This document shows, piece by piece, positions 27,841 to 46,146 of a stretch of 64,000 nucleotides of DNA (position 1 is its first letter; each line of letters begins with the position of its first letter). A program made the translations under genes and the position numbers. The notes beneath the pieces are model-generated. The model saw only the letters and a program-made list of their open reading frames with translations, did no database searches and had not been told where the DNA came from. This stretch comes from Macrostomum hystrix (taxonomy: Eukaryota > Animalia > Platyhelminthes): the NCBI GenBank assembly GCA_950097015.1, contig CATNEN010000038.1, forward strand, positions 21,576,001-21,640,000, in the 5' to 3' direction.

Positions 27841-29207
27841 TCGAAAAAATATCTAGCAGACACAATATGCGGAAGTTGGAAAAGTTTAAGACGAAACTTG
27901 AAGGCGAATATAAAAGTCTAGAGAAGTAGCTTTTTTAGCCGATCTTCTGGCGTCCATTAGATCATTTTTGAGTGTGGCGGCCGCGAATTTGAAGTCTTCG
28001 TTGCCGCCAACAATATTGTTTGTCTCCTCTACGATGCGATATTTCTCGATTCAGCCTCTGCTAGGCTTTTCCCCTAGAAACTGTACGTGGACTGCACGGC
28101 CTCGCTTATAGGCCTTGCTTTTTGGTGGTAAACAAACGATTGCAGGCCACAGATAATTCTCACCGGGCCAGTATGCGGAAACAAGACTTACCTAATTTAA
28201 TTTTGGCGCTCAGCGGCTTGTCGGCGGCCGCGCTGACCAGCTGCCGCTTGCGGCTGTTGTCGGAGCCTGCAGCGCTCTGTGACTTTTTAGCCGTTTTAGG
28301 CGTAGCCTGGGCAATTGTCAAATTTAGAAGTGATAGAAAAAATGCCTGCTAGTTCTAAAACTGTAGGTTCATGACTAATATTAGAATTAGTAGGCTTTGA
28401 TAAAGTTTAACAGATAAAGTCTACTTTTCATCGTTCACACTACAATGCTCCTATGCCCACTGTATAAGCACTAGCTGTCTTTCTATATTATACACTTGTA
28501 GTACGCGTAAATTTCGAAAAAAGTCTAAAATTTTATAATGCAATCAAACTCACTCTTTTATTGCGGCCGAAATTATTTTTTATACAATCGACGCCCGGCA
28601 CGCCGGTACGCCTCGGTATGGACCTGGTAGTGGGGCCATAGCCACATCGGTACTGTGATTTAGTCTGTCGCCCAGGACTTTGAGATCATGGCCTTCCATT
28701 AAACCCTGTAAATTATAATTGTTTTTTTAAGTAAACCTAATATAGAAGATAGGGAATTTCCCAAAATACGGAAAGGAGAACAATTACTCAAGATAATTGG
28801 CATTAGCAAATGCTAAATAAACTAAATTAGCAACAGGAGTTTTGGCTGATTTGAAAAATTGACCTGAAAACTCGAAAATGTGACTGACATGCTGAATGGG
28901 TGAGCAGTTGAATGTGAATGTGATGGAGAATACTGAAGCTTTGAACAAAGACTGTAACCAAGTCAATGAATAAGCAAATTAATGTTAAGACGAATTTCAA
29001 CTTACCCGAGTTTCAACAAACTTGCGAAAATCTGTGTTTGTCATGCCACTGAGAATCGGATTAAACTTTCTCGGTAGGCGGCAAATAACCTGCCAAAATG
29101 GCCATATGGAATTTTGAGCAAAGGCTTGTAGCTGCAGCCCCTTCGTTAATTCGCTCTGTAACAACGCGCTGTAGAAGCTGGCGGCACTCCATGACGTTAA
29201 TTTTTGC

Positions 29208-29893
29208 AGTAGTATGCAAGAGGGGGCTTCTAGGACAAAAATAATCGCAGCCTCCATTATCCACAAACCATTACTTTTATTATTCCCGAAGAGATCAGGA
29301 AAATAGGGTCCCCGCCTCTCTCTAAAAAACTCCGTCTCCATATTCTAAATTCTATACTTCCCATATCATTTTGTGAGTTGAATATCTAGGACAAAAATTA
29401 TCGCAGCCTCCTTAATAAACAAACCATTACCTTTATTCTTCCCGAAGGTTCCCCGCCAATAAAAAATCTGTCTCTACAGTTTGTGAACTTGGACAAAAAA
29501 AATTATCGCTGCCACTCCCTAAAAGATCATGCCCAAAATAGTGAACCTGCAAAAAGCGTGCCAAGACAATCAAATTAGCACTAAAATCCCAATCCCCAAA
29601 CTCAAGACCCCAAACTTAGGGTGCTCATCCTCCGAAAAAAAAATTTAATTCTCATTAAAAATGCTCCCAATCGTCTCTCCAGGATCTTATTACAAAAGTC
29701 ATGAGCCTAATTACAAGAGTAAATACCGATGCAAACAAGAATGCAGCGAGTACATGAGAAAATATTGGCCCAACGTCGATATCAATGTCCCTAATATTAA
29801 TCAAGCTCTCCAAAGACACTGGTTTCATAAGTATGGAGTAACCATAAAGGACTATGACAGCTACTATAACTTTGCAGAAATCATTAAGCAGCT
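29208..29893 (+). repeat. Polinton left TIR (686 bp)
   Basis: Reverse complement of 43947-44553 apart from one extra subrepeat and scattered differences. Confidence 0.93.
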
Positions 29894-29897
29894 ATAG
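29661..29897 (+). CDS. Small TIR-embedded ORF (78 aa), unknown function
   Basis: AAAAATG start like the other viral genes; the right-TIR copy carries CAA>TAA. Confidence 0.55.
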   Translation: MLPIVSPGSYYKSHEPNYKSKYRCKQECSEYMRKYWPNVDINVPNINQALQRHWFHKYGVTIKDYDSYYNFAEIIKQL

Positions 29898-30128
29898 ACT
29901 TTCGATACGCTTTAAGACTTCTAGACTGCATTAAAATCGATATTTTTACGTACAAGCGTATGATATTTTGCTGTGTGGTGGGTGGTGTTGAGCGGATTGG
30001 GTACGGCAGCTGTTTCTTGCCATAGTTCATTGCGCGAGCGGCGTTGGTAGTCACTCCCAGTTGGCTCTAGCCCCCCCCCAATACGCTACTTAAAGGAAGG
30101 TGTTGAATAGCCGCATGAGAACTCCACC

Positions 30129-30932
30129 ATGAGTCAAACCGGAACTTTTTTTTCAATAAACGGAATACGGTTTATCATGGCCTTGTCAAAAGAGACAAGA
30201 ATTGCAACGATTGCCGAACTGGCGGTCTCACTGTCATCTAAAGAAAGGTCGGCAATGGGAAGCAGACTGAGCAGCTGGAAAGAAGAAGAGTTGGTAAGGT
30301 TTCAGGCGAGCTTGGAAAAGCTTGAAGGTGTTCCGGTTAAGAAGAGGGCGCTTCCCAAGAAAAAGGAAGAGAGCGAGCGAGAGAGAGTTATTGCAAGGAT
30401 ATACGCGAAGCTGGAAGAGAATGAGAGTCGCGGTGTAAAGTTGTCTCTGGGTGCAATTTCCGATGGTCTCAACTTGGTCGCCACGAATTTGAATGGAACG
30501 ACAAAGGAAGACTTGGAAGCGAGGTTTAAGAAGCTGACCTATTCTATCGAGAACCTGTCAACTGCTAAGGCCATGATGCAGTTTGAACAGGGGCGCTTAA
30601 TTCAAGTTTTGGTTTACAAGCACAAAATGAATTTGGAAGAGCTCGCCACCACTTTCAACATCAGCAAGCGAACAGTGGGAGACTACGACAAATTTTACTC
30701 TCTCTGTATCACGTACCCAGGTCTAATATTTTCAAGCTACACAATGGGAACCCTGCTTCGCTATAAATCAGTGATTGAAGAGAAGGCAAAAATTGATGAA
30801 CGCTTTGCTGATATATTGAAGATGCAAATCGAGGGTATTTCCCTGGATGATCAATATGAGAAGGATATCAAGTGCTGGTATGAAGAAAGTAAGTACATAA
30901 CATTTTTGTTGCAAATTCTGAAAGAAAATTAG
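30129..30932 (+). CDS. Polinton accessory protein with coiled coil and HTH-like segment, possibly spliced to 30975-31024
   Basis: LEELATTFNISKRTVGDY helix-turn-helix pattern; CCACCATG start. Confidence 0.7.
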   Translation: MSQTGTFFSINGIRFIMALSKETRIATIAELAVSLSSKERSAMGSRLSSWKEEELVRFQASLEKLEGVPVKKRALPKKKEESERERVIARIYAKLEENESRGVKLSLGAISDGLNLVATNLNGTTKEDLEARFKKLTYSIENLSTAKAMMQFEQGRLIQVLVYKHKMNLEELATTFNISKRTVGDYDKFYSLCITYPGLIFSSYTMGTLLRYKSVIEEKAKIDERFADILKMQIEGISLDDQYEKDIKCWYEESKYITFLLQILKEN

Positions 30933-31200
30933 TATAAAACAAACAAAACAAGTCGAACAAACAAACAAATTTAGGCATAGGAGAAGAAGAAGACGAAGCG
31001 GCCACAGTGGAGGTCTTGAACTGATCAAGACGAAGTACTGACTTTTGAATGACTATTATCTATGTTAAACAGTGTTGGCTTTTTTTCTCATTATTCAGTG
31101 TGTTAAAAACTTAATATGCTCTTATTTGTACTGGCATTTTTTCGCCTTCAGTAGTCCTTTATCTATTGGTGGAAGCATGTATATCTTTCAAAGCGCACGA

Positions 31201-31380
31201 AAGAGGCTCTCATTGGTTGCATTAATTTGACGAAAGTTCGTAAAAATCATGCGCAGCATAAAGCGGCTCTCATTGGTTGCATTAATTTGACGAAAGTTCG
31301 TAAAAATCATGCGCAGCATAAAGCGGCTCTCATTGGTTGCATTAATTTGACGAACGTTCGTAAAAATCATGCGCAGCACG
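31201..31380. repeat. Three 60-bp direct repeats with CCAAT-like and palindromic cores
   Basis: Period 60; ACGAACGTTCGT palindrome at 31350-31361. Confidence 0.9.
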
Positions 31381-31446
31381 GGGAAAAAGCTTGCCCAGCT
31401 CAAGGATCCCCTGCCTAGCTTCAAAAGCACCCATTTAGTTCCTTGA

Positions 31447-31893
31447 TTAAACCCCTGCCTTATCAACCCCCAGCTCTTTCAGCAGTCCTCCTAGTTCCTT
31501 ACTTGGCGCATGCAACACAAAACCCACCCCACCAATCCCCAACCCCAACTTTGTCTTACCAAAAATAACAGCTTTAACTAGCTTCCGAGCGATCGATTCC
31601 CTCCACCCGCTTGAAGCCCCTATATTGTCTAGCATTCTGAGCATTTCTTTGTCCCAGCGAGTCTTCTCCTCTGGAAAATCCCTATACTTAATATCATGCC
31701 ACATACAGACAGAGTCTAGCTCGTTCACAGGCTCATGCCCAGGATTTGGATTATTGTTTTTATCTAGCTGTATTTCAAGCGGATTCAAAGGCCCGCAATA
31801 TTTGTAGCCGGGAATTGTCCAGCCTTTGTTTGCTTTTCGAAGCTTTTCTACCAGTCCATGTGAATCTAGTTTACCACCAAAGCGTTGCATCAT
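31447..31893 (-). CDS. Parvovirus VP1u-type phospholipase A2 protein
   Basis: PGYKYCGPLN Ca-loop and PVNELDSVCMWHDIKY catalytic HD motif. Confidence 0.88.
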   Translation of the reverse strand: MMQRFGGKLDSHGLVEKLRKANKGWTIPGYKYCGPLNPLEIQLDKNNNPNPGHEPVNELDSVCMWHDIKYRDFPEEKTRWDKEMLRMLDNIGASSGWRESIARKLVKAVIFGKTKLGLGIGGVGFVLHAPSKELGGLLKELGVDKAGV

Positions 31894-31919
31894 TTTTATA
31901 AAAAATTAAATAAAAAATA

Positions 31920-32909
31920 ATGGCAGATCAGAAACTTCAAAAGCTCTACTACAGCGACAAAGGATTCTTTGTAGGAAAAAATGCAGTCACCAAACTCGCA
32001 GAACTAAGTAATGAATCAAAACAAACAGTTGAAAGATGGCTCTCTAAGCAAGCAGTTTACCAAGTCTATTTCCCACCTGTTAAATTTACAAGACCTCACT
32101 TTAACATCTATAAACCTAATGAAGCGCACCAAGCAGATCTTCTGTTTCTCCCCAATGACTCAGGCTACAAGTATGCGCTCACAGTTATAGACATTGCCTC
32201 CAGATATAAAGAAGCCAGACCGCTTAAAACTAAGAAGTCAGAAGCAGTTGCAGCTGCCCTCCAAGACATTTACAAAAACTCACCGCTCACATACCCACAA
32301 ACCTTTATGACTGATCCTGGCAAAGAATTCATGGGTGCAGTCAAATCCCTTATGGAAAAGAACAATACGAAAATGCGCTACGGAAGAACTGAGCTTCATA
32401 GAGACCAGGCTTTTGTTGAAAGATTCAATCTAACTCTAGCAAAGAGACTTTTCACAAAGCAGACAGCTGAAGAGCTGAAACTAAAAAGTGGCCAATACTA
32501 TACCAAGTGGACAGAAAGACTCCCCGCAGTAATAAGTCAACTGAACAATGAAGTATCTCGAATGACAAACCTGAAACCAAATACTGCCATCAAACAAGAC
32601 ACAGTTGAATCAAAACATCCGATCTCCCAATTCCCATTTCCAAAGCTCCCCGGCGTTTATTCTCCGGAAGTTCTTACTAACTCTGAATTCGTTCGCTTCC
32701 TTTACTTACCAGGAGAGCTGGAGAAGGACACAAAGAGAAGAGCAACAGACCCATACTTTAGTCTTGATGTACATAAGATAAACAGGCATTTCACATCAGC
32801 ATCCGGTGATTACTATTTTCTATCCCAAGACTTTAATTCAAAAGCCCCCACACGATCATTCACAAGGGCTGAGCTTCTAGTGATTCCACATGACACAGAA
32901 ATAAATTAA
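31920..32909 (+). CDS. int: Retroviral-like DDE (rve) integrase
   Basis: HQADL, TVIDIASRY, TDPGKEF, VERFNLTL; intact, 329 aa. Confidence 0.95.
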   Translation: MADQKLQKLYYSDKGFFVGKNAVTKLAELSNESKQTVERWLSKQAVYQVYFPPVKFTRPHFNIYKPNEAHQADLLFLPNDSGYKYALTVIDIASRYKEARPLKTKKSEAVAAALQDIYKNSPLTYPQTFMTDPGKEFMGAVKSLMEKNNTKMRYGRTELHRDQAFVERFNLTLAKRLFTKQTAEELKLKSGQYYTKWTERLPAVISQLNNEVSRMTNLKPNTAIKQDTVESKHPISQFPFPKLPGVYSPEVLTNSEFVRFLYLPGELEKDTKRRATDPYFSLDVHKINRHFTSASGDYYFLSQDFNSKAPTRSFTRAELLVIPHDTEIN

Positions 32910-32928
32910 AAAAATTTTTTTAAATAAA

Positions 32929-33360
32929 ATGATTGAAACCAGAACCGTGAATAAAATTAGCCGAATTATCGACTCTAAGAAGCCAGGAGTTGTATCAATT
33001 AAAGGTGTCAGAGTCAAAGTAGATCCAATCCAGCATATGATCCATTGTAACAATCAAACACACAATATCACTGATGAGAAGACAGGCGGGATTCTTCCTT
33101 TGCTAACTCTTATCCCCATCATCGCAGGTGCTCTTGGTGCAGCAGGAGGTGTAGCCGGCGGAGTTGCATCAGCCGTGAAGGCTGGCAATGACAGAGCACA
33201 TCAACGAGAGATGGAGAATATCGCTAGAGAAAAAGGAGTCAGAATCGGAATGGGTAGTTGTGAATCTGATGAATCAGCTGATGAATCAGTCAGCAAATCA
33301 GAAATCGTTAAAGCCATCATGACACTGCATAAAGCAGGATTTACAATACTCCGGATGTGA
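32929..33360 (+). CDS. Adenovirus pX (pre-mu)-like virion protein
   Basis: KTGG|ILPLLTLIPIIAGALGAAGGVA resembles adenoviral pX (xRGG|ILPLLIPLIAAAIGA). Confidence 0.75.
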   Translation: MIETRTVNKISRIIDSKKPGVVSIKGVRVKVDPIQHMIHCNNQTHNITDEKTGGILPLLTLIPIIAGALGAAGGVAGGVASAVKAGNDRAHQREMENIAREKGVRIGMGSCESDESADESVSKSEIVKAIMTLHKAGFTILRM

Positions 33361-33483
33361 AAACAGAACAGAACAGAATCTGCTCTAATAACTATATTTA
33401 GTACTGTTGGTAGTAGTTTGCCATACTTTACACTTTACTTGAGGGTGACTACCCTAAATTTTTTTTATAAGTTTTCATTAAAA

Positions 33484-36400
33484 ATGCCTAAAGCAATTCC
33501 AGAAAAAAAAATTGTCGAATCTTTCTTTCAAAATAATTGTCCTCAAGCTCAATCGTTTCAACAAAAAAGTCAAGTCCTGCAAGAGCTTTGCAGGCAGAAA
33601 TTCAATCAAGATCCAGGCTACCTCGGGAGCTATGCAATACAGCATGAAATTATTAATCAGCTTCTGCATTCAGAGCAGTACACACCAGTGAAGAAGCCGG
33701 CGACTGAGCATCAACAAAAGAGCCGCAGCTTAGTCAATAAGTATGAGACAGTCACAGGTCAAAATGTGTCGAAATACCCACAGAATAAGCAAGAGCAAGA
33801 AGATCTAGAACGTACAATCCACCAGGTTGAAGCAGAGCTACAAACTGAAGACATTAAATTTGCACAGAGAAAATTCACAGAGTATTATATTGAGTATACA
33901 ATCCAGGAAGACACCACAAATTCCCAATCCGACATTTACGACTTCAAAGACAGAATTCAATCAGTAATTGATCACACACTGAAGTCACGTAAGACCTTCA
34001 AGCTTCAGTTATCATTCAAGATTGAATTTTACATGCCTGCAAAACCCACTGAGCGTCTTGAATACTACATGACTACTAAAGCTCTACCCTTTACTCCCAC
34101 TGACACACAGGATCCTTTTCTTCAAGAGATCAGTAAAAAGATTGACGCCTTTACTTCCAGAGGATCAGGTTGGGTTGTCAATGGCATTCAAAAAGCTACA
34201 GTAATGATCATGAAATATGACCCTCTCAAAGCTTCATCATATATTGAGCTCCCGAAAAAGCTAGCGAGTAAAAAGGCTTGCATCAATGTGCAAAATTATG
34301 ACCAATGCTGCGCACTATGGGTAGTTTGGTCTGCAATATTGTATGAGAAAGATCGAGCCCATACAGAGAGAACTTCTCATTATAAAATGTATTTTGACGC
34401 AAAACTTTTAGAATGCCATGCTAAAGGAATTTCCTTCAATAGAGGCGGCTTGGCAATCGATCAAATCCCAAAGCTAGAGGAAGTCTTTAACAATAAAATC
34501 AGAATCACAGTCTTTGAATGGAATGAGAAGAGCGAAAAAGTACAATTAGTCAGAGCCAGCAAAAACACGCTAGATCCTGAAGGTAGGCGTCGCATAGATG
34601 TCGATCTTCTAATCATAGGTGATTTGCGAGAAAATGCCCACTACGTTTGGATTAAAGATCTTTCCAGGCTCCTCCACAAGCAAATGAACAATCATCATGA
34701 ATCGGTAGCAATCTGCCGTCTTTGTCTGAAGCATTATAGTGGACCCGATCGTGATGAAAAACTTAAAGAGCATGAACTGACCTGTGAAGATCATCCAACC
34801 AACTGCACACTTCCAACGGATAAGCATCTCAGATTTAAGAGTTATCACAAGATGGAGAAGCTCCCGTTTATAGTATACGCTGACTTTGAATGCACTATAA
34901 ACCCTGAAACCAATAAGCATGTCCCAAATTCTGTTGCGTATCTCTTTATTGGAAGAGACTCTTTTATTTGCTCAAACTATTTCTTAGGTGACCAGTGTGT
35001 TGAACAATTCATTTACTCGATGATGGAATTACAGAAAAATGTTGCTGCCATTCAGCCTGTTCCAATAACTATGTCCGATCAAGATGAAATCGACTTCGGA
35101 TCTGCAACTTATTGTCACATTTGCCGAAAGCTATTAACACCCTGCGACGCCAAAAACCACACAGTCAGAGACCACGATCACTTCACAGGAAAATTTAGAG
35201 GGGCAGCTCATAACACCTGTAATCTGAAACTACAGAAAAACATCCACGACCTTACCATTTTCTTCCATAACGGAAGGGGATATGATTATCACTTATTGGT
35301 TGAGAAGCTGGGTATGATACCAGGCATTAAACTAGATTGCATCGCAGAGAACAAAGAAAAGTTCAAGTGCATCGATATTAAGCAAGATTCAGGCAAGATT
35401 AAGATCAAAGATTCATTCCAGTTTCTGGCCGCCAGTCTCGATGCTTTGAGTAAAAATCTCACCGATGACCAATGTACTTATACCAAGATGCTGGCAGATT
35501 CCCTCAATCCTACCCCAGATTCATTTAAGCTTCTTAGAAAGAAAGGTGTCTACCCTTATGAATGTAATCGTGTCTTTGCAGAACCACTACCACCCAAGGA
35601 CAAGTTCTTTTCAAAGCTAACAAACTCTGGGATTTCTGATGAAGATTATGAGCATGCTCAGACTGTTTACAAACATTTTAACTGTCGAAACTTTCTTGAT
35701 TATCACATGCTTTACCTTTGGACTGATGTCTTTCTTCTAGCTGATGTATTTGAAACCTTTAGAAAGACCTGGTACTCTGCTTATGGTCTTGACCCCGCTC
35801 ATTATGTGTCTTTGCCTGCTACCAGTTGGGAATCATTGCTTAAAATGAAATGGGATCAAAATCCCAACTGGTACATCGAGCTGCTTACAGACATAGACAT
35901 GTACAACTTTATAGATTCATCTAAGAGAGGTGGCATCTCTATTTGTGTCCATAGGTATGCAAAGGCAAACAATCCGTATCTAGAAGACTATGATAAAGAA
36001 AAGCCTTCAAACTACATCCTTTACCTGGATGCCAACAACCTCTATGGTTGGGCTATGAGCCAAGATTTACCTGTTAGAGATTTTAGGTGGCTAACAGAAT
36101 GTAACACAGACTTTTCAATACCTGCGATCTATGAAGTTGATGTTGAAATCCCATGGGAACTTCACGACTATTTCTCTGACTTTGCCCCCTTCCCTGAGAA
36201 CATTAACTGTCCAAAGATAATCCAGTACAATGATGGAAGCTGGCAGCTATCTGAAAAAGAAAAAGAGCGTGTGAAAAAGTTAACACAAAATCTCATGAAC
36301 AAGACACGCTATAAAATCCACTACAAGCTGTTGCAGTATTTTATCTCCCTAGGTTGTAGGGTCACGAAAGTTCACAGAGCTCTCGCATTCACAGAAGAAG

Positions 36401-37275
36401 CGTGGATGAAGCCATACATAGAAAAAAACACCCAGTTTACAACTAAAGCAACAAACAGCTTTGACAAGGACCTGTTCAAGCTTGCAAACAACTCTGTCTA
36501 TGGCAAGACCCTAGAAAACGAACGCAACCGCACGAACCTGAAGCTCGTTACCTGTTATGAGCCTGGTGTCATTCAGAAAAGTTTATCAAAGCCCACTTTC
36601 AAAGAGCTTCATATCTTTAATGATTACTTGGGTGCCATACTGTTCTATAAGACTAAAGTTACCCTATGCAAGCCGATATTCACAGGTGTGACTGTACTTG
36701 ACGAATCGAAGCGCCTGATGTATGAAGTCTTCTATGACATGAAGCGGCAATATGGTGAACAACTGAAACTTCTATATACTGACACAGACTCCCTAATTCT
36801 AAACATACAGACTGAGGATGTCTATCAGGACATGTTGAATCAAAAACATCTGTATGACCTATCCGAATATCCAGAGTCCTTCAAGACTTTGAAAGGCGAT
36901 CAAGTACGCGACACTGGAAATCAAAAAGTTGTAGGAAAAATGAAGGATGAAACGGCTGGCACCCTCATTACAGAGTTTATCGGTTTGAGGGCAAAGTCCT
37001 ATTTTGTAAAAAGTTGTAAGTCTACCATTAAAAAATCAAAAGGAATCCCAAAACATGTTGTTAAAAACGATCTCCATGAAGCTTCATACAAGGACGCATT
37101 GATCAATAATAAAAGTACTACTCATGAATTTATGAAACTGCAGTCTAAGAACCACAATATTCACACAATTCAACAGAAAAAGATAGGCCTCTCAGGTGCC
37201 GATAACAAACGACATATCTTTGATGACAACATTAACAGCCTACCATTTGGACACTATAGATTAAATAATTTGTAA
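33484..37275 (+). CDS. polB: Protein-primed family B DNA polymerase (1263 aa from ATG 33484) with N-terminal TP/vOTU-like region and HNH/EndoVII insert
   Basis: Exo YADFE, HNGRGYD, YLWTDV; Pol LDANNLYG, KLANNSVYGK, YTDTDS; CHIC..RDHDH..GAAHNTCN insert. Confidence 0.96.
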   Translation: MPKAIPEKKIVESFFQNNCPQAQSFQQKSQVLQELCRQKFNQDPGYLGSYAIQHEIINQLLHSEQYTPVKKPATEHQQKSRSLVNKYETVTGQNVSKYPQNKQEQEDLERTIHQVEAELQTEDIKFAQRKFTEYYIEYTIQEDTTNSQSDIYDFKDRIQSVIDHTLKSRKTFKLQLSFKIEFYMPAKPTERLEYYMTTKALPFTPTDTQDPFLQEISKKIDAFTSRGSGWVVNGIQKATVMIMKYDPLKASSYIELPKKLASKKACINVQNYDQCCALWVVWSAILYEKDRAHTERTSHYKMYFDAKLLECHAKGISFNRGGLAIDQIPKLEEVFNNKIRITVFEWNEKSEKVQLVRASKNTLDPEGRRRIDVDLLIIGDLRENAHYVWIKDLSRLLHKQMNNHHESVAICRLCLKHYSGPDRDEKLKEHELTCEDHPTNCTLPTDKHLRFKSYHKMEKLPFIVYADFECTINPETNKHVPNSVAYLFIGRDSFICSNYFLGDQCVEQFIYSMMELQKNVAAIQPVPITMSDQDEIDFGSATYCHICRKLLTPCDAKNHTVRDHDHFTGKFRGAAHNTCNLKLQKNIHDLTIFFHNGRGYDYHLLVEKLGMIPGIKLDCIAENKEKFKCIDIKQDSGKIKIKDSFQFLAASLDALSKNLTDDQCTYTKMLADSLNPTPDSFKLLRKKGVYPYECNRVFAEPLPPKDKFFSKLTNSGISDEDYEHAQTVYKHFNCRNFLDYHMLYLWTDVFLLADVFETFRKTWYSAYGLDPAHYVSLPATSWESLLKMKWDQNPNWYIELLTDIDMYNFIDSSKRGGISICVHRYAKANNPYLEDYDKEKPSNYILYLDANNLYGWAMSQDLPVRDFRWLTECNTDFSIPAIYEVDVEIPWELHDYFSDFAPFPENINCPKIIQYNDGSWQLSEKEKERVKKLTQNLMNKTRYKIHYKLLQYFISLGCRVTKVHRALAFTEEAWMKPYIEKNTQFTTKATNSFDKDLFKLANNSVYGKTLENERNRTNLKLVTCYEPGVIQKSLSKPTFKELHIFNDYLGAILFYKTKVTLCKPIFTGVTVLDESKRLMYEVFYDMKRQYGEQLKLLYTDTDSLILNIQTEDVYQDMLNQKHLYDLSEYPESFKTLKGDQVRDTGNQKVVGKMKDETAGTLITEFIGLRAKSYFVKSCKSTIKKSKGIPKHVVKNDLHEASYKDALINNKSTTHEFMKLQSKNHNIHTIQQKKIGLSGADNKRHIFDDNINSLPFGHYRLNNL

Positions 37276-37291
37276 CATAATTTGTAAAAAA

Positions 37292-37690
37292 ATGACAACC
37301 AATATTTATTTAGAAGAGCTAGCTCAGCAATTAAAAATCCCAAACTTCCGAGGCGTCTTTATGAAGGATACACTGCCAGAAACCCCACTAGAAAAAGAAT
37401 GTGGAGTCATGAACTTTGACCCTGCAGAAAAGCCAGGTTCTCATTGGGTTTGTTGGGTAATTGATCCAATCCGTAAACACAAGTACTATTACTTTGATAG
37501 CTATGGAACTGCTGTACCTGAACAACTGAGAAATTATATGACTCATATGAGACATAAAATATACCGCTCAGACTTCATACTTCAGGGTATTAACAGTGAT
37601 ATTTGTGGTGAGCTATGTATGACTGTTTTGTATGCAATGACCCACACCCGAAAGAGTTACAAAGAAATCATTTTAGGGCTGAAAAAATAA
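37292..37690 (+). CDS. Adenain-like cysteine maturation protease
   Basis: GSHWV, YFDSYG, Q..SDICG (H/D/Q/C). Confidence 0.93.
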   Translation: MTTNIYLEELAQQLKIPNFRGVFMKDTLPETPLEKECGVMNFDPAEKPGSHWVCWVIDPIRKHKYYYFDSYGTAVPEQLRNYMTHMRHKIYRSDFILQGINSDICGELCMTVLYAMTHTRKSYKEIILGLKK

Positions 37691-37696
37691 TTTTTT

Positions 37697-37753
37697 TTAG
37701 GTCCTGTTAGGTCCTGTTAGGTCCTGTTAGGTCCTGTTAGGTCCTGTTAGGTC
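37697..37753. repeat. 10-bp repeat (ttaggtcctg) x5 between convergent genes
   Basis: Direct reading. Confidence 0.9.
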
Positions 37754-38373
37754 TTGTTCATTTTCGCTACTTTCGCCACATGCTGTTTGAACACATTCTC
37801 CAGATCATTTCTTAGCTGGCTCATTTCATCAATGGTATTTAGATTAAGCCTAACTCGCTGCTCATAGAGGTCTTGAATGTTTTTAAACTCATCCTCTGAA
37901 ATGAACTTGTCCTCAATCGCCTTTGAGATGTACCCGATGATAGAGTTTTGAACTGATTTCTCGTTTGTTTGCTTCGCATGTAGATGCTTTAGCTTTTGTC
38001 GTCTGTTCCTTGATAGTACTCCTGTAACTGCTGAAATCAGACCACATGCGGCGCCAGCAACTCCGAGTGGAATGGCGGCGATTGGCGCAGTGATTACAGG
38101 AAGTGTTGAAACAGCAGCTGCTGATCCCGATAGAACAGATACAGATCCAAGAAACATATTAAGGTAATCGAAGACCTTGCACTGGCTATTATAGCGCTTC
38201 AGTTTCTTAGTATTATGATCAATTTGCCGTTCAATATCATCTCGCATCTTTTGAATCTCCACCAATCTGAATTGCTGCGAGTTGCAAGTGAAAGTTGGGT
38301 AAAGGGGTTGTTGTGGGCTTGGGTTGTTTGGAGGCGCACTAGGTTCATATAGAGAGTTAATTTTTTCAGACAT
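37747..38373 (-). CDS. Membrane-hairpin protein with N-terminal PSAP/LYP motifs (possibly the adintovirus 'GasderminX' class)
   Basis: LYEPSAPP..PLYPTF, coiled coil, ~45-aa Gly/Ala-rich hydrophobic hairpin, basic stretch. Confidence 0.7.
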   Translation of the reverse strand: MSEKINSLYEPSAPPNNPSPQQPLYPTFTCNSQQFRLVEIQKMRDDIERQIDHNTKKLKRYNSQCKVFDYLNMFLGSVSVLSGSAAAVSTLPVITAPIAAIPLGVAGAACGLISAVTGVLSRNRRQKLKHLHAKQTNEKSVQNSIIGYISKAIEDKFISEDEFKNIQDLYEQRVRLNLNTIDEMSQLRNDLENVFKQHVAKVAKMNKT

Positions 38374-38407
38374 TTTTTTTCAAACAAAAAAAAATTATAT
38401 AAATTTT

Positions 38408-39136
38408 TTATGACCTTTCTCGCAAATCTGTTGCACGCCTTGCCGCCTCCCTTGATGCCTCTTCTGATGGTCCATCAGATACTCTTGCTTCTTCAATGTC
38501 AATGTCTGGCAGATTGTGCAGTCTCTCTAGTCGGCCGAGTCTTCTTTTCGTTTTCCCCCAGTCGTTGTATATCCTATTCAAATACTCAGTGTGTCTTGTT
38601 ACGTTTAGCCCCATGGGTCTTATTGTTTCCTTTGTTTCATTTGCTAGTCTCTGAAGAGTTGTTATATCTGACTCTGCTGCTGTGAGTCGCGAACTCAATC
38701 TATCATGCACAGTGCTTGATCTTAGCATAAAGGCTTCTAAATTTCGAACTTTATTTGAATTTTCTGTTACTCTTTCTTCCACCAAGTTTGCTCGATTATT
38801 AATGGCAGTTCTCAGAGTGGCGATGTCTGATCTTAGAGTGGCGATGTCTGATCTCAGAGTAGGTATCGCTGCAACAAGAGTATCCCGATCATGAACAAAC
38901 TGTACATATAGTATGTCAATCTCTTCCTTCCGCTTTGCTACGCTCAACCGCAGGTCTTCCATGTTTATTTGTCGTTGGTGTGTTGCCCGTTCTAGGGCTT
39001 TCAATCGATCTTTAATGAGTTTGATTTCTGGAATTTTTTCGTCAACATTTATATAACGCCTGTCAAGGTAAGAAACTTGAGCACTAGTGAGTGTGCTTCC
39101 GCGATCCAACGATTCACCTGCAAAATTAATAGACAT
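38408..39136 (-). CDS. Coiled-coil protein (fibre/stalk-like?), unknown function
   Basis: Heptad pattern, TLRSDIA repeated; AAAAATG start. Confidence 0.7.
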   Translation of the reverse strand: MSINFAGESLDRGSTLTSAQVSYLDRRYINVDEKIPEIKLIKDRLKALERATHQRQINMEDLRLSVAKRKEEIDILYVQFVHDRDTLVAAIPTLRSDIATLRSDIATLRTAINNRANLVEERVTENSNKVRNLEAFMLRSSTVHDRLSSRLTAAESDITTLQRLANETKETIRPMGLNVTRHTEYLNRIYNDWGKTKRRLGRLERLHNLPDIDIEEARVSDGPSEEASREAARRATDLRERS

Positions 39137-39161
39137 TTTTTAATAGAAATTTTAAATTAAT

Positions 39162-39962
39162 TTAAAATACAGTTCTGTTTTCTTTGTTGATCATCACAAA
39201 CTGGTAAGGTTGATTCCACTTGTCATAGCAAAGATTAACGAATTACTCCTGTGAAATCTTTCTGTTGGAGTTTTTTGTTGGATTTACAAAATAGGCAGAC
39301 GCAATGACCTCATTGTAAAATCTTTTTAGCCTGTCCTGTGGAATTGTTGGAAACAGGAGGATCAGATTGCAGCTCCCACGAATTGTTTTGTTCGGGAGCT
39401 CGAACCAGTTCTGGGCAATGTAAATTACGTTACAATTGTTGTGCCGTCCTCTTGTAAAATAGTTTTCTATCTGCTTCTGTGGGCCTGTCATGCAATCATC
39501 AAAGACAATCAAATGTTTTCTCCCCTTTTCTAGCTCATCTGGTTGGGGTAGAAGTTTGGTCTTAGGATCAACCTGCGGATCTCCATAGGTGAACACTTTA
39601 ATGTTCTGCCATTTTTCATTGTCTTTGAGGTACTTTGCATATTCGGCAGCTACAATTTCTGGGTTACTGTGAAGGCTCATTTGGTTATTAAAACATTGAA
39701 TAATGTGTTCTTTGTGCAGTCTGTTTTGAAGTCCAGAGATCAACATTTTATACTCATCTTGATACAGGGTGGGAGAGTAGATGTGCAGAGTGTCATAGTC
39801 GATAAAGCCAGGTCTAAGAAGCATGTTAAAGACTCTGAATGTTTTACCTGAACCTGATGAACCAACAACAATGCATCTGAAGTGACCCGGGATTGACTCA
39901 TGATGAGAAAACTTAATCTGATTACGTGTCCAGTGAGGATTGAAGTCATTTGAAAATTCCAT
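39162..39962 (-). pseudogene. A32/FtsK-like packaging ATPase with an in-frame TAA at 39243-39245
   Basis: GSSGSGKT, LIVFDD, RGRH..IYIAQ; the frame continues after the stop as FVNLCYDKWNQPYQFVMIN. Confidence 0.88.
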
Positions 39963-40005
39963 TTTTCTATGATGAAAAAAAATTAAAAAAAAGTAAATCA
40001 TTTAT

Positions 40006-40132
40006 AAGATGTGTCTTTTTGGGACTTAGATGTGTCTATTTGGGACTTAGATGTGTCTTTTTGGGACTTAGATGTGTCTTTCTGGGACTTAGATGTGTCT
40101 TTTTGGGACTTAGATGTGTCTTTTTGGGACTA
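40006..40132. repeat. 21-bp repeat x6 (agatgtgtctttttgggactt) upstream of the ATPase
   Basis: Direct reading. Confidence 0.9.
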
Positions 40133-40174
40133 GTCTTGTACCCTTACATGTCTTGTACCCTCGAAAAGTACCCT

Positions 40175-40576
40175 TTAGTCAAATTTGAAACCACTTCCTT
40201 TTTTAATGCTAGCTATGCTAGCTCTCATCTTCTCGTAGATTGCGGGGTCCACACTGTCTGGATTCGGGGCCAGCGGAGCCAATGGTGCCAATGGGGCCAA
40301 GGGTGGCTGAATATCTTGTGTTACAGTATCCTTTATCTTTTTAGCCGCAGTGACAACGCTTCCCACTGATTCAGCCACGTTCTTAATATTATCTTTGTTC
40401 TCACTAATGACTTTAAAGACCCGAGCACCCTGTGCAATCATGTCAGCAAGACCATTCCCGGAGCGTTCTTTCCTCGGATAGTGGCCTGCTGGGAAAAGTC
40501 CGGATCCACGCTTAATTAGATTAAGTTCCTCCTTGTCATAGTATTTGTCCACGTCTTTTTCGAAAATAATCAGCAT
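40175..40576 (-). CDS. Putative virion core/membrane-active precursor with G-x-G cleavage motifs
   Basis: KRGSG|LF, RSGNG|LA, KKGSG|FK; amphipathic helix after GNG. Confidence 0.65.
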   Translation of the reverse strand: MLIIFEKDVDKYYDKEELNLIKRGSGLFPAGHYPRKERSGNGLADMIAQGARVFKVISENKDNIKNVAESVGSVVTAAKKIKDTVTQDIQPPLAPLAPLAPLAPNPDSVDPAIYEKMRASIASIKKGSGFKFD

Positions 40577-40593
40577 TTTTATTAGGGAAGAAA

Positions 40594-41787
40594 TTATTTT
40601 TTGTTAAAACGTGAAAGCAGAAGCTCTCTTGCCCGTTTGTCGATATACTTCTTTTCCATCATTTTGTCCAGGATGTTGACAAATTCTTTTCTATTTTCGT
40701 CTCTCATGCCAGTCTTTGCAGCTCCAAGAAGAACAGCCACTCGCTTATAGATGTCAGAAATTCCTGTTCCAGATTTGGATCCTGTTCCAGGTGGGGTTGG
40801 CTGTTGTTGAAATGGGCTTTCAAATGACTGGTCAGTTCCGGATGAAGCTGAAGTGTCAGGTAGGGGTGTGTGCTGGGGTGTGAAAACTTTTTGCTTGATT
40901 CTATTCATTCGGTCTGGGGCGAATTGCTCCAAGTGATGCCACTCTGTTGGGTATTGTTCCTTATATTGAGCTACTTTCATGGGGTCGGACTGCTCGAGTT
41001 GACTCAGCACTTGTTCTTCTGTAAAATGTTGCTGTTGTTGTGGTGGTTGTTCTGGTGATTCGGGTTGTTGTTGTGGTGGTTGCTGTTCTAGATATTTTAT
41101 GGCATCTTCTTGATCTGGCAAACCGAACCATTGTTTAAAATGCTTGTACTTTTTGAATCTAGTCAGGATGACACTTTTGTCATGCATTATTTTCAGAACT
41201 TGTGGGACCTTTAGTATTTCTATATCTCTAGCAAGAGCAAAACTCACTAGATCTCTATAGTTCTTTAGCTGCTTGTCCGAAATTTTCTCTTGGTTCTTAG
41301 TCATAAAATTCAGTAAGGTTTCTGTGTAAATTATTATCTTAGTTTCTGAGCCTTTGACAACAGAAATATGGTTCTTGTTTATGTCGATATAATATTCCAC
41401 TGGTTCATTATAAATGTTTTTTCTCCACATACTTATTCCAAATACATATTTCCCATCATGTTCTACACGTTCTACTGGTCCAAAAATGTTATCCGTTACT
41501 TTTAGTGATTGTGATTGATGCGATTCTGCAGATTGCTGTATCTGCGGTGCTTCTGGAATTTTGTCCAAAGCCTTTTGCACCTGGGTTTCCTGTATGTCGT
41601 CAATAGTTTCTTTGACTTGATCAATATTTTTCTTAGCTTCTCCATACCCGGGTTTATGAAACTCTGTGGCTGCTTGGACAAACTCATTGTAGGATTGTTG
41701 CTCCTTATTGATTAGCCCGGTAACTCTCTTTTCTGCTTGTGCTAGCTTCTCCAATTCAGATATTTGGTGCGCATTTTTTCGCTTCAT
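40594..41787 (-). CDS. Conserved Polinton-type uncharacterised protein (397 aa)
   Basis: C-terminal GTG|ISDIYKRVAVLLGAAKTG..EFVNILD resembles the Polinton 'RL.LL.A...AGN' domain. Confidence 0.7.
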   Translation of the reverse strand: MKRKNAHQISELEKLAQAEKRVTGLINKEQQSYNEFVQAATEFHKPGYGEAKKNIDQVKETIDDIQETQVQKALDKIPEAPQIQQSAESHQSQSLKVTDNIFGPVERVEHDGKYVFGISMWRKNIYNEPVEYYIDINKNHISVVKGSETKIIIYTETLLNFMTKNQEKISDKQLKNYRDLVSFALARDIEILKVPQVLKIMHDKSVILTRFKKYKHFKQWFGLPDQEDAIKYLEQQPPQQQPESPEQPPQQQQHFTEEQVLSQLEQSDPMKVAQYKEQYPTEWHHLEQFAPDRMNRIKQKVFTPQHTPLPDTSASSGTDQSFESPFQQQPTPPGTGSKSGTGISDIYKRVAVLLGAAKTGMRDENRKEFVNILDKMMEKKYIDKRARELLLSRFNKK

Positions 41788-41819
41788 TTTTTATTATATT
41801 TTTTTTTAGTTTAAAAAAA

Positions 41820-43106
41820 ATGAACGACCCACTGACACCAGTTTTCTACAAAATTAACAAGCCTATTTTGAGTGATGATAGCACAATCAAAGCGACTCAA
41901 GTAAGAGTTCCCAGTCAGGAAAATCAGAATGAAACTAATATTGGTCCTGGTCAAACACTGACATTCACCTACAATGGATGTTCGTCTCTGGTTAGTGTGC
42001 ACAGTCTTAAGAGCGGCTTCCATATGACATTTCAATTCAAGACAAAGGGAGGTGCGGATGCAGCTCATGCTAACGTTGACAAGCATGATGCAGATGTGGC
42101 TCTGATTAGTAACTTTTGGGCGTACATGTTCAAGGAGTTTAGTGTATCGAATGGGAGCACAGAGTTGGAGCGAATCGCCAACTTTGGAATTGTCTATGAC
42201 GCTCATTGTTTGATCGAGAATCCAGATTTTATTCAGTTGGGGAGTGGTGCAGGTTTCATTGCAGATGAAAAAGAAGGAGGTATCAATGACAGTGGCTATA
42301 AAAAGAGGAAGAAGAGATACAACTATGCATTGCAAGGTGCTGATGATGCTGCTAAGAACCCGCTGTATCGGTCTGTTGATGTATTCGTACCACTGAGATT
42401 CATGAGTGGATTCTGTAATACATTTAATCGACTGACTAGTAACTTCAGCTACACCTTTAAGATGACTAGAGATGATCGCAGTAGAGTGTTGTGGACTGGG
42501 GCGGACCACACTGGGATGGAAGTGAAGCTAACCGGAATCGAGCTGTATTTGGAAGTCATTGAGCCAAAGACCGCACTAAAAGCAGATTATCTCAAGGCAA
42601 TAGAGAAGGACATTGATGTCGCCTACACGGCCTACATGTGTCGAGATGAGCGAAACGAAACCAGAACAAACATCTGCATTAAAGAGGGATCATGCAGCAA
42701 TCCAAGGTATATTATTATTAACCTGAGAAACCCAAATAACATTATACGCTACATGCATGGAGACGTGCGGTCCATTCAGCATGAAATCAGTGATAATCTT
42801 TACCCTGCACTGCCACAAAATGGAAATTTCAGTCAGAACAAGATTAGCAAATTTTACAGCGAGTTGGTCGACTTGGCTGTGAAAGAGAACAATGGAATTG
42901 CTATCACTGCTCTTCAATATGGAACTCTTTATCCGATGTTTGGCGCTGATGTGTCTGCCAGACAAATGCCTACTGATAACAGCCCTGTGAATATCGTGAC
43001 TAACATTGAGAGGACTGCCGCAACTGCTGTTGACCTGTACATTATCTATGCGTTCGAGAGGAAGGTGAAGCTTAACATGATCAACAATTCATCCAGTAAA
43101 GTTTAA
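41820..43106 (+). CDS. Double jelly-roll major capsid protein (428 aa from ATG 41820)
   Basis: DDSTI N-terminus, VPLRFMSGFC, YPMFGADVS motifs, size, and position next to mCP. Confidence 0.85.
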   Translation: MNDPLTPVFYKINKPILSDDSTIKATQVRVPSQENQNETNIGPGQTLTFTYNGCSSLVSVHSLKSGFHMTFQFKTKGGADAAHANVDKHDADVALISNFWAYMFKEFSVSNGSTELERIANFGIVYDAHCLIENPDFIQLGSGAGFIADEKEGGINDSGYKKRKKRYNYALQGADDAAKNPLYRSVDVFVPLRFMSGFCNTFNRLTSNFSYTFKMTRDDRSRVLWTGADHTGMEVKLTGIELYLEVIEPKTALKADYLKAIEKDIDVAYTAYMCRDERNETRTNICIKEGSCSNPRYIIINLRNPNNIIRYMHGDVRSIQHEISDNLYPALPQNGNFSQNKISKFYSELVDLAVKENNGIAITALQYGTLYPMFGADVSARQMPTDNSPVNIVTNIERTAATAVDLYIIYAFERKVKLNMINNSSSKV

Positions 43107-43131
43107 ATTTTTTTTTTTCGGGGCTAAAAAA

Positions 43132-43947
43132 ATGGAAGCGATTGCTGAAAGACTAAATAATATTATTTCTCACTCTAAGGAGAGCATTCCTATTACAATA
43201 GCTGGGCGAATTAATGACTCAAACGGGATATTTGTTGAAAAATTAGAGCAGGCGATTCGCCTGGATCCAAGTGCTAATTACCATGTATATCTTAACGACT
43301 TCACTGGTTGGTCAAACGTTCCCAATGTGACGGCAGCAAATAATAAGTTTCATTACAAATGGAAAGGTGTAGCAGCAGCAGAAGCTGTGGTATTCCCTGT
43401 GAGCACGCAAAGTGTGGATACCTACAATTACTTTCTAGAAAGTGTTTTTACTAAAAGAGGCCATTTTAAGACACCCAATGCGAGTAAGCCAGAGCAGAAA
43501 CTGTTCCCTGTCAAACTATCCTATGATCTCACTGTAATGAGAGTGGTCATGCAAGTTCACAAAGATGCTGAGGTTGAATTTAAAGATGACACTTGGTATA
43601 GGGAATTGGGATTCGAGAAGAAAGTGTATAAGGCAGAATCCGGGGAAAGCGGCTTGTTCTTAGCACCCAATATCGCAGACATTGTAAAGGGTTTGAATAT
43701 TCTAATCAGAAGTAATCTCAGTCTTGATTGGGTGTTTAAGGGAAAGCGAACGAATATTTTGTACAACATCTCAAACTCTGTTGCTGGAGGACAGATGCTG
43801 GTAGAGAAACCAAATCCAGTGAAAAGAGTTGTGCTAAGTAATAAGGAGATTCACGAGATTGTGCTGCAGTTTGAGACGGAAGATGGTGTTGGCGTTGATT
43901 TCAACGGTGAAGAGTTTGTATTGACGTTGGTCATTGAGAGAATGTAA
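43132..43947 (+). CDS. Minor capsid (penton) protein
   Basis: IRLD...Y.VYL...SNVPNVT..NNKFHY and C-terminal VDFNGE.F.LTL.I patterns. Confidence 0.85.
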   Translation: MEAIAERLNNIISHSKESIPITIAGRINDSNGIFVEKLEQAIRLDPSANYHVYLNDFTGWSNVPNVTAANNKFHYKWKGVAAAEAVVFPVSTQSVDTYNYFLESVFTKRGHFKTPNASKPEQKLFPVKLSYDLTVMRVVMQVHKDAEVEFKDDTWYRELGFEKKVYKAESGESGLFLAPNIADIVKGLNILIRSNLSLDWVFKGKRTNILYNISNSVAGGQMLVEKPNPVKRVVLSNKEIHEIVLQFETEDGVGVDFNGEEFVLTLVIERM

Positions 43948-44553
43948 GCTGCTTAATGATTTCTGCAAAGTTATAGTAGCTGTCATAGTCCTTTATGGTT
44001 ACTCCATACTTATGAAACCAGTGTCTTTAGAGAGCTAGATTAATATTAGGGACGTTGATATCGACGTTGGGCCAATATTTTCTCATGTACTCGCTGCATT
44101 CTTGTTTGCATCGGTATTTACTCTTGTAATTAGGCTCATGACTTTTGTAATAAGATCCTGGAGAGACGATTGGGAGCATTTTTAATGAGAATTAAATTTT
44201 TTTTCGGAGGATGAGCACCCTAAGTTTGGGGTCTTGAGTTTGGGGATTGGGATTTTAGTGCTAATTTGATTGTCTTGGCACGCTTTTTGCAGGTTCACTA
44301 TTTTGGGCATGATCTCTTAGGGAGTGGTTTGTGCATTATGGAGGCTGCGATAATTTTTTTTGTCCCAGATATGCAACTCACAAACTGATGAGGGATGTTA
44401 AAAGTAGAGAATTTAGAATATAGAGACGGAGTTTTTTAGAGAGAGGCGGGGACCCTTTTTTCCTGATCTCTTCGGGAATAATAAAAGTAATGGTTTGTGG
44501 ATAATGGAGGCTGCGATTATTTTTGTCCTAGAAGCCCCCTCATGCATACTACT
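43947..44553 (-). repeat. Polinton right TIR (607 bp)
   Basis: Inverted copy of 29208-29893; begins at the last base of the penton stop codon. Confidence 0.93.
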
Positions 44554-45106
44554 TTTTGCGGATCCATATTCTGAATCCGTATTGTGGCATTCCACCTGAA
44601 GGTAAAGTTAGGTTGCTCTTGTCTTTTGAATTTGTTGTGACGCAGCCCTCACCTCTGTCCTATCATTTTCATCTCTTTCTCATTCCCTGCCCCGCCAGTC
44701 AGCTAGCGTGCCCCCCACCCCAGTTCATATGTATCGATCGCCCCAGCCTACCCCTAATTGTTGAATGTACATCTCACCCGCCTTGCGCGCTCTCTTACCC
44801 CACCCCCTGTTTGCTTTGTCGCTAAAGCCCGGAGTTCTGTGGTGCCAACCTAGCTATATAGTTGTGCCCAGTTAATTAGAGCCTGCTAACCTCGTCTGCC
44901 CACCTGTTACGAGACTGTCTATTTTAGTGCAAACAAAACCGACCGGCTACTAACTGTTGCATCAGCCGAGATACTGTTATTCTGTTGTTGTTTCTCTGTC
45001 ATTCCTCCGGACGCGGGTCGAGCGGCGCTTTTCTGGGGACCTGGGGAGTCGCAGCTTACCCAACCTAGCTGTAGGCCTACCTGCACATTTAGTGAACCAC
45101 AACAAC

Positions 45107-45125
45107 TGGTGCCGTGACCAGGATT
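45107..45125 (+). promoter_or_regulatory. Primer-binding site complementary to tRNA-His
   Basis: TGGTGCCGTGACCAGGATT just after the LTR. Confidence 0.85.
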
Positions 45126-45213
45126 TCAGTTAGTGTCGCCCCGTGTCGAGATTCTGTCTTCGTCTAGTCCGTTTGGTACATTAACTCTATTAGTTACTTA
45201 GAAGTACGTTATC

Positions 45214-46146
45214 ATGGCTTTAGACAATCTGATCGATGCCCTGACGGCAAGGATCCAGGAGCAGCTGCATGTTGCCCAGCGTGTTCCCCGTCCTAACAAG
45301 TATGTCCCAACTCAGGACTTTGCCCTGTGGAGGCAGCAATTTGACACTTATTGTGAGGCCGCCCGGATCCCCGAGGATCAGCGGAAGCAAAACTTGCTCG
45401 ATTTGCTTGACTTTGGCACGGCATTTAAGGCAGTGGCCAACCTCGAGCTAGACGAAGATTTAGAGTACGATGACTTCGTTGCTCAGCTCGAGGCTCGCTT
45501 TACTCAGAATCGCACAGCCCAGGACTACAAGACAGAGTTTCAGGGCAGGAATCAGGGAGATGGGGAAGCTCTGGAGGATTACGCTGACGCTCTCAGAGAG
45601 CTCATGCGCAAGTCTTATCCAACCCAACGCGTCGAACAGAGAGATGAGCTGGCGAAGGACCGATTTTTGAAGGGCATCCGGGTTCCAGAGAGGGTGCTTG
45701 AAAATGTCTTGCTGCAGGACCCCGGCACGCTGCAGGCTGCTGTCCAGCGTGTGCGCCAGACCCTGGCTTCAATGAAACTGCTGGACGGAAAGCGCTCTGT
45801 CCACGCTGTGAACAGTCAGGCAGAGAGCCAAGTAGCTAGCATGGCTGCTGAGATTGCTGGCTTGAAGGAGGAGCTTGCGCAGCTGAAGCGGGGAGGGGCA
45901 TTGACCCAAACAGCTCAGTCGGACCCGCCGCCGAGACAAGCCGCAGCTGCTCGCACCGACAGGTCGTGCGGTCGGTGCCTTCAGTCGGGACACTCGACTG
46001 CGGAATGCAGAAACTCGGTGGTTTGCCTCGCCTGCGGTCAGTCAGGTCACACTCGCGCCCGGTGCCAGGGTCGTCAGGCTGGACCGGTGCAGGGAAACGG
46101 GATGAGGGCCCGGCCGGGCCAGCGTCCTGGGCCCTACCGACAGTAA
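45214..46146 (+). CDS. gag: Gag with two CCHC zinc knuckles
   Basis: CGRCLQSGHSTAEC and CLACGQSGHTRARC; intact, 310 aa. Confidence 0.9.
   Translation: MALDNLIDALTARIQEQLHVAQRVPRPNKYVPTQDFALWRQQFDTYCEAARIPEDQRKQNLLDLLDFGTAFKAVANLELDEDLEYDDFVAQLEARFTQNRTAQDYKTEFQGRNQGDGEALEDYADALRELMRKSYPTQRVEQRDELAKDRFLKGIRVPERVLENVLLQDPGTLQAAVQRVRQTLASMKLLDGKRSVHAVNSQAESQVASMAAEIAGLKEELAQLKRGGALTQTAQSDPPPRQAAAARTDRSCGRCLQSGHSTAECRNSVVCLACGQSGHTRARCQGRQAGPVQGNGMRARPGQRPGPYRQ
46092..46135 (+). promoter_or_regulatory. -1 ribosomal frameshift signal
   Basis: G GGA AAC heptamer in the gag frame, 6-nt spacer, AGGGCCCGG/CTGGGCCCT stem; the -1 frame is the protease ORF. Confidence 0.8.

Follow-up and report, generated by a model that had tools for sequence, protein, structure and literature searches.

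PLA2 genes are an established part of the Polinton/Maverick repertoire. They were marked in Polintons by Yutin 2013 (PMC3671162), packaging of such lipases for entry was proposed by Yutin 2015 (PMC4642659), and the PLA2s of Sf Mavericks have been described (PMC5803895). Starrett 2021 (PMC8502044) presents PLA2X, in which a PLA2 ends in a C-terminal pX, as characteristic of Alpha virion modules, places the pX-bearing GasderminX in Beta modules, reports Alpha PolB with Beta modules, and mentions unpublished work in which DNA of the Spodoptera adintovirus co-purified with particles. Lipases and pX have also been grouped as 'Macc' core proteins (Buck 2024, 10.1101/2024.03.25.586562), and in group 2 Maverick-Polintons, Gosseviruses and VC35 a phospholipase is likewise a common capsid-associated gene (10.64898/2026.06.19.733378; PMC7805220), the available text dealing with neither its fusion state nor pX. 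An earlier note on the present DNA, which mentions PLA2 and pX-like domains in some adintoviruses, agrees with descriptions published in 2013-2021. Selection on Maverick capsid genes has been treated too (PMC8097293), and since the vertebrate Maverick gene modules in the available text of that paper list no PLA2, the enzyme is not essential to the Maverick group.

The nearest counterparts of the locus presented here are the PLA2X proteins found in Alpha (Mayetiola-class) adintoviruses and the 'CAP' protein known from Sf Mavericks (PMC8502044; PMC5803895), which combine the same two domains and have the same proposed role in entry. There the domains lie on one protein; here each has its own gene, the two on opposite strands, and the PLA2 comes from a usually free or integrase-linked lineage. 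Alpha-PolB adintoviruses with a Beta-class module (PMC8502044), whose genes carry the labels GasderminX, Cupiennin and SLATT, resemble the element in a separate pX, a SLATT-like gene and a cupiennin-like candidate, and the PolB of the element is 37-39% identical to those of PLA2X elements; but the same paper ties PLA2 to Alpha virion modules, and this element has it in the other gene set. The available text of three further sources (PMC11131425, PMC11161782, 10.64898/2026.10.13.758929) holds nothing on PLA2 architecture. We found no published description of a free PLA2 with a separate pX, or of a PLA2-integrase fusion, in the accessible parts of the literature; the maps of Starrett Fig. S1-S2, sequence files and preprint supplements may show them. 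Largely accounted for by known Polinton biology, the element combines known parts in a variant layout and does not amount to a new entry system. The published rule, by which PLA2 comes joined to pX and belongs to Alpha virion modules, proves too narrow, as PLA2 is often free or integrase-linked and occurs in elements whose pX lies on another protein.

Polinton/Maverick elements have long terminal inverted repeats, AG...CT ends and a 6-bp target duplication. All of these are found at 29208-44553 of the window (the whole 64,000-nucleotide stretch analysed), in an element of 15,346 bp that is 84% coding (Table 1). Its termini read AGTAGT...ACTACT with TTTTGC on either side, and the arms of the inverted ends, 0.6-0.7 kb long, are 97-99% complementary in three blocks (by blastn, 382 nt at 98.7% and 235 nt at 89.8%). 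The genes of a Polinton are likewise present: protein-primed PolB, rve integrase, DJR MCP, packaging ATPase and cysteine protease, with intact-looking frames for these and for the probable penton. The element is thus an integrated Polinton/Maverick, adintovirus-like, in an animal-like genome. Flanks at 44553-44554 differ in contigs of sequencing runs X5 and X11, so the family occupies several insertion sites.

Table 1. Features of the Polinton/Maverick element and its flanking duplications, numbered by position in the window
Feature	Position	Strand	Basis or remark
Left target-site duplication TTTTGC	29202..29207	.	Read directly; identical hexamer past right end
Left terminal inverted repeat, start AGTAGT	29208..29893	+	Contains 78-aa ORF 29661-29897
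Accessory ORF, 267 aa, weak helix-turn-helix signal	30129..30932	+	Pfam Sigma70_r4 E 0.0098, under cut-off
Stand-alone parvovirus-type (group XIII-like) PLA2, 148 aa	31447..31893	-	PF08398
All-AT spacer, 26 bp	31894..31919	.	Between head-to-head PLA2 and integrase start codons; read directly
rve integrase, 329 aa	31920..32909	+	PF00665 E 2.2e-9
pX-like core protein, 143 aa	32929..33360	+	PF05829
Protein-primed B-family DNA polymerase with endonuclease VII-like insert, 1263 aa	33484..37275	+	
Adenain-type maturation protease, 132 aa	37292..37690	+	Peptidase_C5 E 8.7e-5, over cut-off
SLATT-like two-transmembrane protein, 208 aa	37747..38373	-	NCBIfam SLATT_1 E 3.9e-6, under cut-off
Coiled-coil protein, 242 aa	38408..39136	-	Weak coiled-coil matches only; no specific family
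A32-like packaging ATPase	39243..40001	-	Pox_A32 E 4e-6
133-aa protein, candidate core protein	40175..40576	-	No Pfam match
397-aa protein, candidate core protein, no family	40594..41787	-	No specific Pfam match
Double jelly-roll (DJR) MCP	41820..43106	+	PF21738 E 5.5e-5, 23 bits vs cut-off 27
Probable minor capsid protein (penton), 271 aa	43132..43947	+	No Pfam match; penton identity inferred
Right terminal inverted repeat, terminus ACTACT	43947..44553	-	
Right target-site duplication TTTTGC	44554..44559	.	

Identification of the larger genes draws on several kinds of comparison, NCBIfam having no name for PLA2, pX, PolB, MCP or penton. PolB carries the motifs YLDANNLYG, KLANNSVYG and YTDTDS and an Endonuclease_7 domain (E 1e-4); it has no direct match to PF03175 in Pfam, is 37-39% identical to the PolBs of loci L020, L021 and L024 (39% over 861 aa to that of L024, which is PF03175-positive), and in a PDB search matched endonuclease VII only, at E 0.11. 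The MCP has an Atlas feature match of 0.97 to a DJR cluster and E 1e-17 to the PF21738-positive MCP of L021, and the penton candidate aligns with a like-sized L020 ORF (blastp E 7e-11) and more weakly in L021 and L023-L027. Adintoviruses have been defined by an integrase with a C-terminal chromodomain, a PolB bearing an OTU-like domain at its N-terminus, and a hexon reciprocal by BLASTP with the Mayetiola or Terrapene reference (10.1101/2024.03.25.586562). The element departs from the first of these: Pfam Chromo gave no match in its integrase at E<=1. Chromodomains are present in the integrases of L001, L005, L020 and L021.

The earlier note had placed a parvovirus-type PLA2 with an HD motif and a pX-like protein on either side of the integrase, and suggested profile searches for both. 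The three ORFs lie exactly there, and both profiles score over their cut-offs. For PLA2 the match to PF08398 is 54.5 bits against a cut-off of 23.9 (E 1.5e-14), with a YCGPLN loop at residues 32-37, DxxxxxHDxxY at 60-70, D81 and K113. D60, H66, D67, Y70, D81 and K113 do not vary across all 13 aligned sequences and by spacing correspond to D69, H75, D76, Y79 and probably D97 and K122 of AAV9 (positions from PMC12455919); D81, on the same spacing, would be the distal catalytic Asp. Loop, HDxxY and Asp pattern are those of parvoviral VP1u PLA2 (group XIII), as in AAV, but VP1u is part of a capsid protein, whereas this PLA2 is free, has no evident tether to one, and has a loop-to-HD spacing 11 residues longer than AAV.

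PLA2s rank first in three fold searches of the AlphaFold model (pLDDT averaging 68.8, and 79-93 by block across residues 31-110, where the model is confident), all with weak scores. The top solved match by Foldseek is rice PLA2 at E 0.08, for which VIA gave Z 8.3 (rmsd 4.1 over 94 residues) against Z 7.7 for an unrelated protein; among viral proteins, a PLA2-like protein of an entomopoxvirus and parvoviral VP1 rank highest, the best at E 2.6e-3 and none at E<=0.001.

The calcium loop had been singled out as a variant. Its sequence stands, YCGPL departing from strict YxGxG, but its special status does not: the AAV VP1 chain in the alignment reads YLGPFN, so that strict YxGxG is not required in the group XIII family. 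The third glycine is also missing from 29 of 52 PLA2 relatives, and among the best 150 of 1,564 relatives it is present in 63 and absent from 73 of the 136 with a readable loop, 14 being unreadable. An inactivating effect of the loop was rejected, as AAV carries a non-G third position too.

The pX-like protein scores 25.4 bits on PF05829 (E 1.3e-5, cut-off 25); the match takes in residues 52-82, which follow KTGG immediately, and bears out the hydrophobic segment noticed there. This Gly/Ala-rich stretch spans about 33091-33177, with a 19-residue mean of 2.06. Of three PDB matches to its alignment the best is a chain named PX (9lr9_E, E 0.049), and 148 relatives were matched, seven of them full-length at 46-64% identity. 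With adenovirus protein X (pre-mu) it has in common a GG site followed by the conserved hydrophobic C-terminal segment; the match covers this precursor fragment only and not the Arg-rich mu peptide. Residues 1-54 contain no mu-like Arg run (net charge +4), unlike the pX ORFs of L018 and L019, and P4 is Lys rather than hydrophobic. The ~200-aa pX type, which we take to be GasderminX, is longer, and hhalign against 16 such proteins aligned 41 pX columns only; like GasderminX, the protein has a pX-like segment without PLA2. In adenovirus the lytic factor is pVI and pX is a core protein (PMC7998265), so that the earlier idea of pX as escape machinery is not supported; for the pX-like protein a function in assembly or core linking is more probable than a lytic one.

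Relatives of the PLA2 show how it is usually arranged. Nine close ones, 113-180 aa long and 52-68% identical, are free proteins (81-259 aa having been searched) and keep all catalytic residues, and the longer ones (n=25) have rve in 23 by Pfam or 24 by BLAST, and pX in one. A length-free search returned 1,564 relatives at E<=0.001; among the best 150, no further domain follows PLA2 in 106 (some of which will be fragments), 24 run into integrase, 19 have other tails including one protease, and one has pX, in reverse order, with a pX profile that picked up 6 of 6 PLA2X controls. Fusion partners besides the integrase are the protease (P0218) and a pX protein (P0157, P0325), and the fusions recur, with several full-length members per cluster. 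In a tree of 53 rows the PLA2 belongs to a supported clade made up of 10 free proteins; the branching that joins this clade to the integrase-fused ones is an open fork, compatible with fission as well as fusion. The unfused state is therefore common, and the usual partner of the lineage is integrase, rarely pX.

Two loci, L020 and L021, have a gene set like that of the element: PLA2 directly upstream of the integrase, a SLATT-like gene, and a ~200-aa pX protein separate from PLA2. The boundary between PLA2 and integrase is a stop in L020 and a different frame in L021. Peculiar to the present element are the inverted PLA2, the shorter pX protein and the integrase without a chromodomain, which is 25-33% identical to PLA2-fused integrases. 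An assembly or frameshift artefact as the source of the split was rejected on the opposite strands, the full-length free relatives and a bridging contig of another run, which spans PLA2 and integrase in identical layout with 24 differences in 831 bases.

These relationships bear on the possibility that the PLA2 and pX-like proteins are a divided PLA2X acting as a membrane-breaching pair, as venom PLA2 does with melittin. In 6 of 14 loci retrieved by means of the fusion alignment (L023-L027, L029) both domains do form one protein, the hydrophobicity of the pX segment is high, and Starrett 2021 (PMC8502044) offered as speculation a pX-melittin likeness and PLA2-melittin synergy. We nevertheless regard such a pair as unlikely, given how seldom pX is joined to this PLA2 lineage, the absence of any PLA2 profile score in the 120 listed of the 148 pX relatives (78-251 aa searched), and adenovirus lysis by pVI. 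The element's ATPase and MCP are also nearer to L020/L021 than to PLA2X elements (for ATPase, E ~2e-37 against 1e-12 to 4e-14; its tree places it on a long branch and serves as weak support only). PF05829 has no match in the PLA2 ORF, and the C-terminal pX that defines PLA2X is missing, pX being encoded by its own gene on the opposite strand. These genes are not a PLA2X divided in two, since the lineage is mostly free or integrase-joined and rarely pX-joined, and, lying on opposite strands, they do not make one operon-like module; the 'hybrid entry module' of the earlier note is not supported. Co-operation of PLA2 and pX could occur without common origin.

A processing signal may connect these proteins with a particle. 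The motif [KR]xGG or [KR]xGxG, chosen post hoc after inspection of the proteins, occurs three times in the 133-aa protein against 0.16 expected, twice in the 397-aa protein against 0.15 and twice in the pX-like protein against 0.34. In PLA2 the count is two (RFGG and KLGLG) against 0.68 (p 0.14, not above chance), and integrase, ATPase and protease lack it. P4 is Lys in 102 of 119 motif-bearing pX relatives, and a KxGxG-type motif lies at PLA2-integrase and PLA2-protease junctions of relatives. The strict consensus of the adenovirus protease fits a single site in the whole element (IGGVG, in PLA2) and was discarded as a rule for processing. Mavirus offers a close parallel (PMC6048507), likewise combining a predicted lipolytic enzyme (MV13), an integrase (MV02) and a protease, which cuts GG↓X and GX↓G; its particles hold integrase, protease and the cleaved predicted hydrolase with a GK↓G site. 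MV13, however, is an alpha/beta hydrolase, not a PLA2, and was shown in particles, whereas the PLA2 here is a predicted particle protein.

Taken with these observations, the PLA2 and pX-like protein are probably packed in the predicted particle and trimmed by the protease, with PLA2 acting at entry. PLA2, pX-like, 133-aa and 397-aa proteins would be packaged as precursors and processed by the protease that the element encodes; during entry, lipid of the endosomal membrane would be hydrolysed by PLA2 through His66-Asp81 and calcium, as parvoviral VP1u does. This reading is favored by the full capsid gene set, the conserved catalytic residues, a synonymous excess among sister copies, the PLA2 fusions to integrase, protease and pX alongside the content of mavirus particles, and the recurrence of this gene set in L020 and L021, where pX again has a protein to itself; it is weakened by the weak fold matches, the post hoc motif, a change in the HD motif of one X5 copy and the missing capsid tether. 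Genes, motifs, conservation, arrangement and relatives are matters of observation, and activity, packaging, cleavage and particles matters of inference. An entry role for PLA2, which the earlier note had proposed as endosomal escape, survives as the most likely reading but was already published (PMC4642659, PMC8502044). Its step from there to an extracellular phase is not supported: the PLA2 and pX genes by themselves do not show one, and the case for it is already made by the genes for capsid, ATPase and protease. That animal Polintons produce infectious particles, and what these contain, is still mostly inferred, and the element adds no new kind of evidence.

PLA2 might instead work inside the producing cell, in membrane remodelling, exit or host-signalling, and not in an incoming particle. 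It is free of any capsid domain here, and stand-alone PLA2-like genes without a VP1-type tether are also found in an entomopoxvirus and a baculovirus. The repeated fusions, however, join PLA2 to integrase, protease and pX, which are particle proteins in mavirus or adenovirus, and its AT-rich start context (the 26-bp spacer) is that of most element genes, capsid genes included; a producing-cell role appears improbable on this evidence.

Copies of the element from other runs allow a further comparison. Among sister PLA2 copies from four runs, 20 of 36 listed differences are synonymous, and within codons 24-117 the figure is 9 of 12 against 21% expected (binomial p ~8e-5), where the differences are best-supported rows only, are non-independent, and include adjacent changes scored singly. 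In one X5 contig the codon for the HD-motif Asp is altered non-synonymously, which suggests that some copies may be decaying, and others have small indels. With the several insertion sites of the family, these altered copies are what might be cited for PLA2 as a functionless passenger, kept through the copying of an element whose movement is now confined to the genome. Such an account is very improbable in view of the synonymous excess and of nine relatives that retain every catalytic residue at 52-68% identity.

An extension of the entry reading can be offered tentatively. PLA2 may possibly be a detachable cargo module, shuffled among integrase, protease and pX and freed by the element's protease at basic-P4 KxGG/KxGxG sites, the present gene being a freed, inverted descendant of a PLA2-integrase polyprotein. 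In that case the particle would deliver lipase and integrase jointly to the new cell, which for a DNA virus would be a retrovirus-like strategy.

Among the smaller genes, the 267-aa accessory ORF is without the AT-rich start context found at most others, and the SLATT-like protein has relatives in L020 and L021. The 133-aa protein has three KxGSG/RxGNG motifs around a short, amphipathic-looking segment; its likeness to the 'cupiennin-like' class is by eye only, and an L020 ORF has a comparable layout without significant alignment. Scans of viral contigs returned zero relatives for the MCP and PolB of the element, and for pX two loci only, each a ~43-kb contig with adenovirus-like pX ORFs.

Among relatives of the phospholipase A2 (PLA2) encoded by this Polinton, the commonest long form is a PLA2-integrase fusion protein, with or without a chromodomain (P0133-P0156), and a KxGxG-type motif lies at the junction of these fusions. 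Besides the fusions, PLA2 and integrase also occur together in tandem unfused or frame-broken forms (see table). Other partners were seen as well: in the relative P0218 a PLA2 of this kind is fused to the adenain protease, and in P0325 it lies behind a pX protein of the approximately 200-aa type.

Coordinates of PLA2-integrase regions in related loci and of the ORF common to both terminal repeats
Feature	Locus	Position
PLA2-integrase region, fused or tandem/frame-broken	L020	9668-11247
PLA2-integrase region, fused or tandem/frame-broken	L021	7066-8477
PLA2-integrase region, fused or tandem/frame-broken	L002	89-1134
Short terminal-repeat ORF, left copy	window	29661-29897
Short terminal-repeat ORF, right copy	window	43947-44179

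Free PLA2s are found on further contigs. On two Polinton-like contigs, L001 and L005, one is accompanied by an rve-chromodomain integrase as well as by a TBP-like gene. PolB was seen in L001, and neither contig gave a pX match. Free PLA2s with an MGWF or MGFF start, which may be a myristoylation start, are present on L007, L008, L010-L013 and L016, and L007 and L016 also have matches to an A32 ATPase and a tyrosine recombinase.

Around the window gene itself, a 60-bp tandem repeat of about three copies (31186-31370) lies immediately downstream, and sister copies part from the window sequence at the PLA2 3' end, near 31455-31463. A GGNCC site is retained, without an intron, at the Gly-Pro codons of the loop (31789-31794).

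Most genes of the element (29661-43947) share an AT-rich start context ending in an A-run and ATG, with WAAAATG before 10 of the 14 listed starts; this context is absent at the 267-aa accessory ORF. The right copy of the terminal-repeat ORF is truncated at the junction between the repeat and the end of the probable penton gene.

Just past the right end of the Polinton begins a degraded Ty3/gypsy-like retrotransposon (44700-48850), in which gag-, protease- and reverse-transcriptase-like frames were recognized by eye. Elsewhere, window positions 6519-12659 have long inverted arms (6519-7577 versus 12001-12659), between which two frames were picked out by eye, one transposase-like and 472 aa long, the other resembling a PHD finger.
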